A DNA stretch of 64,000 nucleotides, taken from the NCBI GenBank assembly GCA_964016885.1, contig CAXHJY010001022.1, positions 9,520-73,519 on the forward strand, written 5' to 3'. The DNA is from Eledone cirrhosa. Taxonomy: Eukaryota. Position numbers and translations under genes: made by a program. Positions 14,117 to 54,120 of the stretch are shown one piece after another (within the stretch, counting starts at the first letter, position 1; the number at the start of each line of letters is the position of its first letter). The notes under the pieces were generated by a model. That model was not told where the DNA came from, ran no database searches, and saw only the letters and a list, made by a program, of their open reading frames with translations.

Positions 14117-14634
14117 CATATATTTTGATTTGATTACGTGAATGTCTCTATTTATTAATATTTTGAATAATATATATATATATATATATATATATATATA
14201 TATATATATATATATATATATATATATATATATATATATATATATGTATGTATGTATGTATGTATATATGTATATATGTAATAGAATGAAACGAAATTTC
14301 ATTTCTCATTCTTAGTACGGCACTTACTTAAATGTAAGTATGTATGTATACGTACATACATATATGTATACAGACGTACAGTAGTCTGTATGTATATATA
14401 TACATGCTACTGTACGTCTGTATACATATATGTATGTACGTATACATACTTACATTTAAGTAAGTGCCGTACTAAGAGTGAGAAATGAAATTTCGTTTCA
14501 TTCTATTCCATTTATCGTCTTCGGTGCGCCTGGTCGACTGATCTCACTCGATATGCAAATTAGGCTGCTCAGCCGTTAATTTTCATAAGGAGAGTATATA
14601 CTTTCGGACGTTCAACCATCTGGCAGAAAGGTAT

Positions 14635-14677
14635 ACGGTGCTGACGATAGCTAATAAGCTTGAAACTAGTACATCGT
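14635..14677 (+). ncRNA. Type I hammerhead ribozyme, intact
   Basis: acggtg-CTGACGA-tagct aata agctt-GAA-actagt-A-catcgt. Confidence 0.88.
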
Positions 14678-15518
14678 TCCTGTGTCAGTGTTGAACAAAA
14701 AGGTGACGTGGTTGCCTAAATACTGTACGGCGTTATTCAGGCTGCTTGTTTGTTTACAAACGAACAAACCGAGCATTATAATAAATGTTCGGTAGACTGA
14801 TACGTGCATATATATATGTGTACCTGTATGTATATATATACATGCTACTGTACGTCTGTATACATATATGTATGTACGTATACATACATACTTACATTTA
14901 AGTAAGTGCCGTACTAAGAGTGAGAATTGAAATTTAGTTTTATTCTATTCCATTCATCGTTTTAGGTGCGCCTGGCCGACTGAACTCACTCGATATGCAA
15001 ATTAGGCTGCTCAGCCGTTAATTGTCATAAGGAAAGTATATACTTTCGGACGTTCAACCATCTGGCAGAAAGGTATACGGTGCTGGCGATAGCTAATAAG
15101 CTTGAATATTGAACATCGTTCCTGTGTCAGTGTTGAACAAAAAGGTGACGTGGTTGACTAAACACTATACGGCGTAATTAAGGCTGTTTGTTTCTTTACA
15201 AACGAACAAACCGAGCATTATAATAAAAGTTTCGTAAACTGATACGTGCATATATATATGTGTGCTTGTATGTATATATATACATGCTACTGAACGTCTG
15301 TATACATATATGTATGTACGTATACATACATACTTACATTTAAGTAAGTGCCGTAATAAGAGTGAGAAATGAAATTTCGTTTCATTCTATTCCATTCATC
15401 GTTTTAGGTGCGCCTGGCCAGCTGAACTCACTCGATATGCAAATTAGGCTGCTGAGCCGTTAATTTTCATAAGGAAAGTATATACTTTCGGAAGTTCAAC
15501 CATCTGGCAGAAATGTAT

Positions 15519-15561
15519 ACGGTGCTGACGATAGCTAATAAGCTTGAAACTAGTACATCGT
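15519..15561 (+). ncRNA. Type I hammerhead ribozyme, intact
   Basis: Same sequence as 14635-14677. Confidence 0.88.
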
Positions 15562-50819: not shown

Positions 50820-51705
50820 TTAAACAATTAAGTTAAAAATGTACATCTACATATGCATACTGAAATACTAGTGTGTATATGAATACAAACACGTATACAT
50901 ATGTAGGTGTACCAAGTCTTTCACTGGTCGCTTTACAGTGAGCGGCCCAGCTATTCTGTATGTAAACACACAGACAAACCGGTTTTTAGAGTCACACTGG
51001 TTTTTCGGGGGAACACCTTCCCCCTATTCTCCAGAAAGCCAGACAAGGAATATTGACCTAGTTTCGTTGTTGTTACAACTCATCAGCAATGTTTACCTAT
51101 CTACCGGCCTTTCTGGAGAATTGTAAAAGCACATATCGTTATATGCTTTTTCTATGAAAATTAGTAGTGGGCAGACTATATATATATATATATATATATA
51201 TATATATATATATATATATATAAAAAATAAATAACGAAACGAAATTAAATTTCGTTTCGTTTGTAACTCACTTTTGTATGACTGACGCTTAAACAATTAA
51301 GTTAAAAATGTACATCTACATATGCATACTGAAATACTAGTGTGTATATGAATACACACACGTATACATATGTAGGTGTACCAAGTCTTTCACTGGTCGC
51401 TTTACAGTGAGCGGCCCAGCTATTCTGTATGTAAACACACGGACAAACCGGTTTTTAGAGTCACACTGGTTTTTCGGGGGACACCTTCCCCCTATTCACC
51501 AGAAAGCCAGACAAGGAATATTGAACTAGTTTCGTTGTTGTTACAACTCATCAGCAATATTTACCTATCTACCGGCCTTTCTGGAGAATTGTAAAAGCAC
51601 ATATCGTTATATGCTTTTTCTATGAAAATTAGTAGTGGGCAGACTAATTTGCATAGAGTGTGAGTACGCACCGGTTCAGCGGAGACGATAAAAAACAAAT
51701 AACAT
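50820..51705 (-). repeat. Inverted arm (~2 units) of the 469-bp hammerhead satellite (family 2)
   Basis: Reverse-complement units. HHR cores at 51080-51086 and 51548-51554. Confidence 0.92.
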
Positions 51706-51709
51706 AATA

Positions 51710-54120
51710 ATGTGTGTATTCATATACACACTAGTATTTCAGTATGCATATGTAGATGTACATTTTTAACTTAATTGTTTAAGCGTCAGTCATACAAAAG
51801 TGAGTTACAAACGAAACGAAATTTAATTTCGTTTCGTTATTTGTTTTTTATCGTCTCCGCTGAACCGGTGCGTACTCACACTCTATGCAAATTAGTCTGC
51901 CCACTACTAATTTTCATAGAAAAAGCATATAACGATATGTACTTTTACAATTCTCCAGAAAGGCCGGTAGATAGGTAAATATTGCTGATGAGTTGTAACA
52001 ACAACGAAACTAGGTCAATATTCCTTGTCTGGCTTTCTGGAGAATAGGGGGAAGGTGTTCCCCCGAAAAACCAGTGTGACTCTAAAAACCGGTTTGTCTG
52101 TGTGTTTACATACAGAATAGCTGGGCCGCTCACTGTAAAGCGACCAGTGAAAGACTTGGTACACCTACATATGTATACGTGTGTGTATTCATATACACAC
52201 TAGTATTTCAGTATGCATATGTAGATGTACATTTTTAACTTAATTGTTTAAGCGTCAGTCATACAAAAGTGAGTTACAAACGAAACGAAATTTAATTTCG
52301 TTTCGTTATTTGTTTTTTATCGTCTCCGCTGAACCGGTGCGTACTCACATTCTATGCAAATTAGTCTGCCCACTACTAATTTTCATAGAAAAAGCATATA
52401 ACGATGTGTGCTTTTACAATTCTCCAGAAAGGCCGGTAGATAGGTAAATATTGCTGATGAGTTGTAACAACAACGAAACTAGTTCAATATTCCTTGTCTG
52501 GCTTTCTGGTGAATAGGGGGAAGGTGTTCCCCCGAAAAACCAGTGTGACTCTAAAAACCGGTTTGTCTGTGTGTTTACATACAGAATAGCTGGGCCGCTC
52601 ACTGTAAAGCGACCAGTGAAAGACTTGGTACACCTACATATGTATACGTGTGTGTATTCATATACACACTAGTATTTCAGTATGCATATGTAGATGTACA
52701 TTTTTAACTTAATTGTTTAAGCGTCAGTCATACAAAAGTGAGTTACAAACGAAACGAAATTTAATTTCGTTTCGTTATTTGTTTTTTATCGTCTCCGCTG
52801 AACCGGTGCATACTCACATTCTATTCAAATTAGTCTGCCCACTACTAATTTTCATAGAAAAAGCATATAACGATATGTGCTTTTACAATTCTCCAGAAAG
52901 GCCGGTAGATAGGTAAATATTGCTGATGAGTTGTAACAACAACGAAACTAGTTCAATATTCCTTGTCTGGCTTTCTGGAGAATAGGGCTAAGGTGTTCCC
53001 CCGAAAAAACAGTGTGACTCTAAAAACCGGTTTGTCTGTGTGTTTACATACAGAATAGCTGGGCCGCTCACTGTAAAGCGACCAGTGAAAGACTTGGTAC
53101 ACCTACATATGTATACGTGTGTGTATTCATATACACACTAGTATTTCAGTATGCATATGTAGATGTACATTTTTAACTTAATTGTTTAAGCGTCAGTCAT
53201 ACAAAAGTGAGTTACAAACGAAACGAAATTTAATTTCGTTTCGTTATTTGTTTTTTATCGTCTCCGCTGAACCGGTGCGTACTCACACTCTATGCAAATT
53301 AGTCTGCCCACTACTAATTTTCATAGAAAAAGCATATAACGATATGTGCTTTTACAATTCTCCAGAAAGGCCGGTAGATAGGTAAATATTGCTGATGAGT
53401 TGTAACAACAACGAAACTAGTTCAATATTCCTTGTCTGGCTTTCTGGAGAATAGGGGGAAGGTGTTCCCCCGAAAAACCAATGTGACTCTAAAAACCGGT
53501 TTGTCTGTGTGTTTACATACAGAATAGCTGGGCCGCTCACTGTAAAGCGACCAGTGAAAGACTTGGTACACCTACATATGTATACGTGTGTGTATTCATA
53601 TACACACTAGTATTTCAGTATGCATATGTAGATGTACATTTTTAACTTAATTGTTTAAGCGTCAGTCATACAAAAGTGAGTTACAAACGAAACGAAATTT
53701 AATTTCGTTTCGTTATTTGTTTTTTATCGTCTCCGCTGAACCGGTGCGTACTCACACTCTATGCAAATTAGTCTGCCCACTACTGATTTTCATAGAAAAA
53801 GCATATAACGATATGTGCTTTTACAATTCTCCAGAAAGGCCGGTAGATAGGTAAATATTGCTGATGAGTTGTAACAACAACGAAACTAGTTCAATATTCC
53901 TTGTCTGGCTTTCTGGAGAATAGGGGGAAGGTGTTCCCCCGAAAAACCAGTGTGACTCTAAAAACCGGTTTGTCTGTGTGTTTACATACAGAATAGCTGG
54001 GCCGCTCACTGTAAAGCGACCAGTGAAAGACTTGGTACACCTACATATGTATACGTGTGTGTATTCATATACACACTAGTATTTCAGTATGCATATGTAG
54101 ATGTACATTTTTAACTTAAT
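51710..54120 (+). repeat. Tandem array of 469-bp hammerhead-containing units (retrozyme-like family 2), ~5.1 units
   Basis: HHR cores at 51985, 52454, 52923, 53392, 53861. First octamer at 51885. Confidence 0.95.
52447..52491 (+). ncRNA. Type I hammerhead ribozyme (representative; also at +469, +938, +1407)
   Basis: aatattg-CTGATGA-gttgt aaca acaac-GAA-actagt-T-caatatt. Stem I is extended by agg/cct and ccagaaag/ctttctgg. Confidence 0.9.

Follow-up and report, generated by a model that had tools for sequence, protein, structure and literature searches.

How hammerhead-bearing satellites spread in animal genomes has been an open question since newt satellite 2, reportedly a transcribed hammerhead satellite with a promoter of the small nuclear RNA (snRNA) type. 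Two tandem arrays that share with it one hammerhead per unit are described here, in a stretch of 64,000 nucleotides from Eledone cirrhosa (assembly GCA_964016885.1, contig CAXHJY010001022.1, positions 9,520 to 73,519; hereafter the window); the putative snRNA-gene-like promoter of these arrays, named family 1 and family 2, is a sequence match to the DNA upstream of host U6 genes. Regarding the closest described class, the metazoan retrozymes without long terminal repeats (non-LTR retrozymes), the main text of Cervera and de la Pena proposed in 2020 that Penelope-like elements (PLEs) mobilise them through circular RNA (PMC7229834), and that of Li, Clavereau and Pollet argued for their origin from pseudo-long terminal repeats (pLTRs), ascribing the arrays to local amplification (Li et al., 2026, 10.64898/2026.07.22.740005). 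Both families resemble these retrozymes in being tandem repeats of low GC content whose units measure some hundreds of nt, in the single type I hammerhead, the lack of an open reading frame (ORF), the high copy number and the co-occurrence with PLEs. Fixed 3' ends, head-to-head arms, (TA)n targeting and A>G marks, all found here, are not described in the main texts of these two works; in contrast to the pLTR origin argued by Li and others, the present units have no pLTR homology in the three PLE families sampled.

The second group to be compared is formed by PLEs that encode an endonuclease (EN+ PLEs). The sections of Craig and others on these elements describe an inverted, 5'-truncated copy and a tail of 30-40 bp at one end (Craig et al., 2021, PMC8557442), and for the element PAc it has been shown in vitro that both strands of an AT-rich DNA are cut and extended and that cDNA is initiated inside the RNA at two sites, which mark the limits of the tail (Frangieh et al., 2024, PMC11167929). 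Common to EN+ PLEs, PAc and the present arrays are the inverted arm, the tail at one end, the 5' truncation, the AT-rich target and an internal start of reverse transcription far from the hammerhead cut; the arrays differ in being non-coding, in their tail of 57-72 nt and in their multi-unit tandem arms. The Chlamys MRC1-type elements, as presented in the part of PMC8557442 devoted to them, are likewise non-autonomous PLE passengers with multicopy head-to-tail insertions, but their 3' end is similar to that of an autonomous partner, and hammerheads are missing from most of their clade; for the present units no partner homology was found, and each of them has a hammerhead. Since the footprint matches the two start sites and the two-strand cutting of PAc as well as the tail and inversion of Craig and others, it is taken as a PLE mark. 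The reading preferred here, with a probability of about 0.62, is that the arrays are retrozyme insertions likely made in trans by the reverse transcriptase (RT) and endonuclease (EN) of a Hydra- or Neptune-type PLE, which likely copied one circular RNA from both ends of a break. Such a class, copying from a circle and help by a PLE have already been put forward in print as proposals; what is quantified here, for a non-autonomous element, is the rule by which a short and a long end are paired. No published account of this two-armed footprint or of editing marks was found in a search that left subscription journals and supplements outside.

Unit coordinates are counted from the predicted hammerhead cut, and the genome searched comprises 3.0 Gb in 1,796 contigs, the window being C1049:9520-73519. 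The repeat period is 442 nt in family 1 and 469 nt in family 2 (GC content of family 2, 38%), and the two units are homologous, with an alignment score of 317 against 131 +/- 13 for shuffles. One type I hammerhead is predicted per unit in both families, with a CUGAnGA...GAAA core, stems I and II and a minimal stem III; among copies captured by their flanking pattern, the core and the GUH triplet are intact in 229/247 of family 2 and 80/95 of family 1. The fold of the family 2 monomer has a z of -9.9 against shuffles, no ORF of at least 150 aa lies inside either array, and the array ends do not form direct terminal repeats. Judged by sequence, both families belong to the non-LTR retrozymes with a type I hammerhead, as these are understood in PMC7229834, a class of low-GC tandem units of ~150-450 (up to 1000) bp with a hammerhead and without ORF or LTR; the circles and the self-cleavage of the units are predicted. 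Matches to miRNAs in Rfam were discarded as noise from TA hairpins. As a separate observation, a distinct element at L146:2650-2950 (minus strand) carries the same octamer-type motif as the units ~95 nt upstream of a degenerate hammerhead core, is alignable there to family 1, and is possibly a third, older retrozyme family.

The unit searches returned 798 and 2,909 first-look candidates, of which 40 each were scored, and with extensions 79 merged regions were obtained. In each family the 3' ends are fixed at two sites, a short one (S) and a long one (L), ~57-72 nt apart. At loci chosen on unit score alone, 67/70 outer 3' ends of family 1 fell within S 214-236 or L 269-288 (9.7% of the unit) and 64/71 of family 2 within S 225-237 or L 298-305 (4.5% of the unit), in windows set after inspection of the data and with arms below 92% identity omitted. 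The S and L sites align between the two families, and a TA flank was present at 58/67 and 62/64 of such ends, again at loci not selected on ends. Genome-wide, exact (TA)n junctions numbered 2,152 (L) and 915 (S) for family 2 and 1,114 (L) and 2,074 (S) for family 1, four counts which are not mutually comparable, as the patterns differ in stringency; reversed-pattern controls gave 0 in the genome. Read-through of the L site was found 7,162 times, ~3.3 per L end, and 11 contigs of X1, which is possibly not independent of the assembly, display the L junction into (TA)n. The tabulation of 3' ends and flanks proposed in the first-pass annotation thus returned two windows with TA flanks at thousands of dispersed loci, and the array ends are a real, non-random feature. 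Termination by Pol III was rejected as the cause of the ends: those of family 2 lie at T5 runs, and those of family 1 are without a T4 run.

The same data bear on whether the arrays are DNA satellites, spread by recombination or repair at (TA)n with TA microhomology setting the ends, or moved by a long interspersed nuclear element (LINE). All ends do lie at small TA microhomologies, and family 1 has an internal TA-rich stretch; yet no (TA)n junction exists genome-wide at the internal TA-microhomology site tested, the ends have neither poly(A) nor an added tail distinct from the target, and a directional RNA step is demanded by the complementarity of S and L together with the strand-biased A>G changes, both set out below. 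Such an origin is therefore extremely improbable.

The pairing of the ends was counted at loci chosen on unit score, the window family 2 arm having been split beforehand and the family 1 copy at the window start, which has no L end, left out. Head-to-head pairs comprised 45 L+S, 2 L+L, 0 S+S and 13 with an unclassed end, and one of the two L+L pairs is merely an internal 45-nt piece. Anchored samples, which are position-ordered from C1 and overlap partly, gave the same pairing. With family 2 anchored at L, 88/90 loci were tallied (one duplicate and one not chained were omitted), with 52 S partners, 0 L, 5 other, 13 without an inverted arm and 18 unresolved; an inverted arm was thus present in 57/70 resolved loci, and 8/52 S partners are arms of just 10-20 nt. 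Anchoring family 2 at S yielded 20 L, 0 S, 4 none and 6 unresolved in 30 loci. For family 1, 30 L-anchored loci gave 14 S, 0 L, 5 other, 10 none and 1 edge, and 30 S-anchored loci gave 16 L, 1 S (with a non-TA flank), 4 other, 8 none and 1 edge. The element was bordered by (TA)n at both sides in 106/116 unique L-S elements, part of which had been selected on one TA junction. Inversion, one-sided tail and (TA)n target are the insertion footprint of a PLE, and it is observed here. Beside this footprint, mirror-image copies of ~20-40 nt are seen either side of (TA)n at the 5' junction of an insertion, at window 11856-11951 and at L207, which suggests fold-back copying of target DNA; the apparent chimera at L207 was accordingly dismissed as a mirror copy of adjoining DNA. 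A further observation concerns L205 and L206 and the C3:157347000 region, where identical retrozyme insertions with identical flanks lie a few kb apart, by either local segmental or assembly duplication.

In the window itself (Table 1), the first-pass annotation had placed both arrays within (TA)n, with ends more than 200 nt beyond the cleavage site, and this was borne out: (TA)n tracts flank family 1 (14170-14279 and on to 17078) and family 2 (48017-50819 and 54122-54197), and the distance holds for all window ends with respect to the predicted cut. Family 1 was said to end at ACTTACAT at both 407 and 16865, and the matches do reach units 226 and 229; this is the end of the main arm and of the window-start copy, and the inverted arm ends ~50 nt further, at unit 278, in the second end window. 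The window-start copy reaches beyond the left edge of the window; its inverted arm, which lies out there, stops near unit 213, and no L end is seen. Inverted 5' segments had been read at 14279-14384 and 50820-51705; the former stands as 14280-14384, and the latter is not one arm, being composed of a separate piece, (TA)23 and the inverted arm. The two family 2 arms had been thought to end within ~6 nt of each other, and this fails, since the arms joined at the inversion end ~70 nt apart (units ~302 and 230). The rare variant 61A>G occurs in all seven copies of the window family 2 array, the extra piece 50820-51176 included; this piece also carries 468T>G, common with the first main-arm unit. 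If the left arm were continuous, the locus would count as an S+S exception. The length of (TA)23 is about that of the part of the unit which is absent between the extra piece and the arm with the L end, an agreement that may be chance or an assembly effect.

What served as template can be approached through the length and the variants of the arms. In family 2, 108/146 arms cross the predicted cut site, 40 of them at least 2 times and 9 at least 3 times, with a median arm length of ~500 nt and a smooth, short-tailed spread; because of this crossing, the main template cannot have been a linear monomer already cleaved. Shared rare variants amount to 0.16 per 100 nt within the same arm, 0.24 between opposite arms and 0.00 between loci. 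The variant spectrum was drawn from 139 family 2 elements and 90 family 1 elements. In family 2, sense-strand A>G changes make up 22/42 element-wide rare variants (13 elements) vs 34/308 singletons (p=3e-9), and the A>G:T>C ratio is 22:5 element-wide vs 34:29 in singletons (p=0.017), or 33:8 vs 42:42 in a looser count; some of these variants cluster in one hairpin, and a cluster of A>G changes at 343, 344 and 360 is seen in four copies. Among 29 rare multi-copy variants spanned by both arms, 21 were present in every copy of both (10 A>G, 11 T>C and others), 2 in a single arm and 6 scattered. Such sharing points to one RNA molecule read repeatedly from two ends, and the favoured template is an edited RNA circle. 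Concerning the rolling-circle copying from a circle primed at a fixed site that had been envisaged, the circle is favoured and the ends are fixed and AT-rich; priming sites number two, and an insertion normally uses one of each.

The steps that would produce such insertions begin with an internal U6-like promoter, from which a transcript would start ~40-55 nt before its own hammerhead and run through the next unit. Two successive hammerheads would release a monomer, to be ligated to a circle and occasionally subjected to A-to-I editing. Judging from the footprint, the PLE endonuclease would cut both strands of (TA)n, and one 3'-OH would prime RT at S and the other at L, 60-70 nt further 3', through 1-4 nt of TA microhomology. 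Both cDNAs, as the DNA displays, would mostly cross the cut/ligation point, often repeatedly, stop at scattered positions and join head to head, and some arrays would later expand by DNA-level duplication, visible in 2/4 long arrays. The more specific scheme, in which a dimer of the PLE RT-endonuclease cuts both strands of (TA)n and reverse-transcribes one ADAR-edited circle from two dedicated start sites, one for each DNA end, going round it several times, each insertion records one circular RNA and obligatory S+L pairing is a general PLE rule common to Hydra, Neptune and their passengers, is tentative, with a chance somewhat under one half.

As for transcription, the units of both families carry an octamer-containing motif and a TATA-like box. 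Two of the five U6 loci compared have this motif at -76/-77 with a TATA box near -32, and the other three, from one cluster, have a one-base variant; 16 bases are identical to one U6 promoter, a match that is weak alone (shuffle p ~0.035, one of 18 comparisons). The motif spacing predicts a start at unit 401 in family 1 or 416 in family 2, just before the hammerhead. On the U6 genes themselves, a tandem cluster of more than 30 copies with ~1.8-kb spacing was seen at L353-L362 (C19:31.78-31.84 Mb), and in the L360 copy a SINE-like insert (SINE, short interspersed nuclear element) separates promoter from gene.

Regarding the enzyme, the Hydra clade was recognised by RWK, DKT, a CxCX5C linker, a C-terminal EN without CCHH and a (TA)n target. 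By motifs, the window PLEs A, C and D and their relatives fit Hydra (RWK/RWR, DKT, CxCX5C, terminal CxxC and CxH), and 60966-62755, L161 and L363 are of the Neptune/Nematis type, with the CX2-5CxxC linker found by pattern, CCHH by eye and a C-terminal EN; Pfam does not recognise these PLE RTs. Young intact frames exist for Hydra (776-791 aa) and the Neptune type (up to 1,176 aa), with 63,309 and 35,481 first-look genome candidates, respectively. Coding PLEs had been noted to share the inverted arms in (TA)n; this applies to 2610-6782 and 34464-40972, and 57808-62755 turned out to join two PLE families. The two ends of Hydra-D lie 75 nt apart (29/30 loci), the tails of other coding PLEs measure ~100 nt (Hydra-C), ~60 (Neptune-1) and 39 (Neptune-2), and in resolved two-armed coding PLE copies S is paired with L.

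The first-pass annotation had named Naiad as the partner, a PLE type recognised by an EN N-terminal to RT, a DKA motif and CxC before RT. According to the sections of Craig and others on them, Naiads have (TA)n as their preferred target and leave tails and inverted copies, which would suit the arrays, but they are without canonical hammerheads and are described as old remnants, long inactive, in cephalopods (PMC8557442). Every coding PLE examined in the window and beside retrozyme loci, in a survey of Naiads that did not extend genome-wide, has instead RT before EN, with Hydra or Neptune motifs; the window PLEs show DKT or DKS and no DKA, and the young intact frames are those of Hydra and Neptune type. 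A Naiad helper is thus very improbable. Between Hydra and Neptune the soft hints balance about evenly. Neptune is hinted at by its tail of close to 60, by an S end that is distributed among several TA sites as in retrozymes (that of Hydra-D is sharp) and by a distance from hammerhead to end like that of the retrozymes; Hydra is hinted at by its canonical hammerheads and an L end rich in U. Because no pLTR homology exists in the three sampled PLE families, the partner is not named. Four direct retrozyme-PLE joins with a resolved far end span both clades, among them L068 (Neptune-1 S with retrozyme L) and L363 (Neptune-2 S with retrozyme L); they may be later insertions with deletion, and were rejected as proof of the partner; the window also joins Hydra to Neptune.

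Several results weigh against the preferred reading. To begin with, a parent array of uniform units, read out as a linear multimer, could be the source of the shared variants, which leads to an alternative in which a PLE inserts from a linear, uncleaved multimeric transcript and hammerhead and circles are unneeded for copying. It accounts equally well for ends, inversion and read-through, the presence of non-A>G variants in both arms (11/21) fits inheritance from a parent locus, and PAc hammerhead mutants insert normally, unprocessed RNA being the main substrate (PMC11167929). A multimer would nevertheless not be expected to show the same A>G change throughout the units of the two arms, at times in clusters, as RNA editing acts per site and per molecule. 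Moreover, different loci have almost no variants in common (0.00 per 100 nt, against 0.16-0.24 inside one element), and at least the ancestor must have passed via a single-monomer template; the linear multimer is for these reasons considered unlikely, at roughly one chance in five.

Returning to the copying of a circle by a PLE, there are other points against it. The 5' ends are scattered, with a modest surplus directly behind the cut site, where positions 1-25 have 16 of them against an expected 7.2 (p=0.003, with 13 windows tried), and some templates may be linear or RT may pause there. The A>G:T>C count in the older family 1 is 4:2, which is not significant. In Rfam, HH9 scores 38.6 bits on the family 2 hammerhead, under the cut-off of 52, and the family 1 hammerhead is not among the listed hits. 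The T5-T6 runs of the units would normally stop Pol III. A unit-profile nhmmer search of 60 Hydra-D/Neptune-1 loci found solely neighbouring retrozyme copies and TA noise, and a weak match of Neptune-2 near the hammerhead had its best score equalled by 8/100 shuffles, which is not significant. Two of the four joins break the S+L rule (L364, Neptune-2 L with L; L066, Hydra-C-like L with L). In the general test, target duplications were not set apart from the control (8/116 vs 11/317); a duplication is clear at single non-TA sites, ~10 nt at L079 and 6-18 nt at L083. The search for an empty allele at L079, whose flank is itself a repeat, gave no element-skipping joint in four runs, and one depth-3 X6 contig, which would agree with the duplicated motif being present once, is too weak to count.

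A last point against it is array growth: the 30-unit and 14-unit arrays carry periodic shared variants, and the window family 1 array has variants common to subsets of units. It could be argued from these arrays that a short PLE-type insertion of 1-1.5 units came first and the tandem copies later, by unequal crossover or slippage, in the manner of the "local amplification" of Li and others (Li et al., 2026). Most arrays are star-like, however, with 308 singletons vs 14 partially shared variants, the arm lengths spread smoothly around the median given above, and both arms are often multi-unit. Four longer arrays were compared, and none has lost its S and L ends in (TA)n; in one insertion the two arms comprise 6+12 full units, all 18 of them 100% identical, a zero divergence to which assembly smoothing possibly contributed, and another has 6 units with 2 singletons. 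Later amplification as a general explanation is improbable, at about one chance in ten. Periodic variants in 2/4 long arrays do imply later DNA-level duplication, and L399-L400 and L402 are satellites for which a retrozyme was the seed. Retrotransposition accounts for the ends and the origin, and extreme length is partly secondary. The view of the arrays as single retrotransposition products rather than results of unequal crossover consequently stands for origin and ends, on account of the head-to-head arms with their fixed ends in (TA)n and of the scattered 5' junctions, and needs qualifying for the longest arrays, part of whose growth came later at the DNA level.

Circles and a PLE helper had earlier been proposed from co-occurrence and pLTR trees; the insertions themselves now bear the marks, namely tail and inversion, S+L pairing and A>G changes. 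What is gained is a small RNA as a well-defined substrate, a pair of start sites predicted to the nucleotide and young intact candidate enzymes of the same genome, with which the in vitro system of Frangieh and others could test the helper and rolling-circle copying directly. The S+L rule also bears on the unexplained tandem and inverted structure of PLEs generally and, if the more specific scheme given above is true, every retrozyme insertion preserves in the genome the trace of one individual RNA circle.

Table 1. Features of the window, and two arrays elsewhere in the genome (last row). Unit positions are counted from the predicted cut.
Feature	Position	Strand	Remarks
Older family 1 copy, 3' part	1..407	+	~85% to unit; S end = unit 226
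Hydra-clade PLE, head-to-head arms, broken ORF	2610..6782		L end left, S end right
Hydra-clade PLE with pLTR	7574..11879	-	RWK, DKT, CxCX5C, C-terminal GIY-YIG
(TA)n/(TATG)n target flank, family 1 insertion	14170..14279		
Family 1 inverted arm	14280..14384	-	Unit 172-278, end inside L window
Family 1 main arm	14386..16868	+	~5.2 units of 442 nt; S end = unit 229
Promoter-like octamer-containing motif, once per unit	14552..14563	+	TATA-like box ~40-44 nt downstream
Family 1 hammerhead cores	14641, 15083, 15525, 15967, 16609		Core changed at 15083, GAAA changed at 15967, stem III changed at 16609
Family 1 predicted cuts	after 14671, 15113, 15555, 15997, 16639		
Later SINE-like insert in family 1 array	16113..16301	+	16-nt target duplication 16097-16112 / 16302-16317
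(TA)n flank, family 1 right side	16869..17078		
Hydra-clade PLE, canonical hammerhead in pLTR	34464..40972		Hammerheads at 36193, 40787, 34548; arm ends ~100 nt apart
(TA)n flank, family 2 insertion	48017..50819		2.8 kb
Separate family 2 piece	50820..51176	-	Unit 349 to S end 236
(TA)23 separating piece from inverted arm	51177..51222		
Family 2 inverted arm	51223..51703	-	~1 unit; L end = unit ~302; hammerhead core at 51554
Family 2 main arm	51711..54121	+	5.1 units of 469 nt; S end = unit 230
Family 2 main-arm hammerhead cores	51985, 52454, 52923, 53392, 53861		Cleavage triplet changed at 51985
Family 2 main-arm predicted cuts	after 52015, 52484, 52953, 53422, 53891		
(TA)n flank, family 2 right side	54122..54197		
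Young Hydra-clade PLE arm	57808..60964	-	98% to intact 789-aa copy; L end at 57808
Neptune-type PLE arm	60966..62755	+	CX4CxxC linker, C-terminal EN; S end; head-to-head with Hydra arm
Long one-sided arrays, 30 and 14 units	L399-L400 (C1:5738085-5752751), L402		Higher-order periodic variants

Some further observations concern the neighbouring elements. In the mixed-family join at 57808-62755 (60964/60966), the L-ended Hydra arm meets the S-ended Neptune-type arm with no TA between; it is either a nested insertion with deletion or the work of two enzymes at one break. In the Hydra-D pLTR (L118 and other loci; window 6680-6782), a putative hammerhead was seen by eye that has a U3-A8 core variant and long stems and is missed by the canonical pattern; its putative cut lies ~17 nt before the S end. 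Hammerhead-like cores are also present at window 14062, 34352, 41100 and 47830, near the 3' ends of more TA-flanked PLE remnants. The SINE-like insert in the family 1 array has further copies in the window at 13654, 19883 and 31549, and a LINE with APE and RT domains (Pfam RVT_1), which is (TA)n-flanked too, occupies window 54198-57510.

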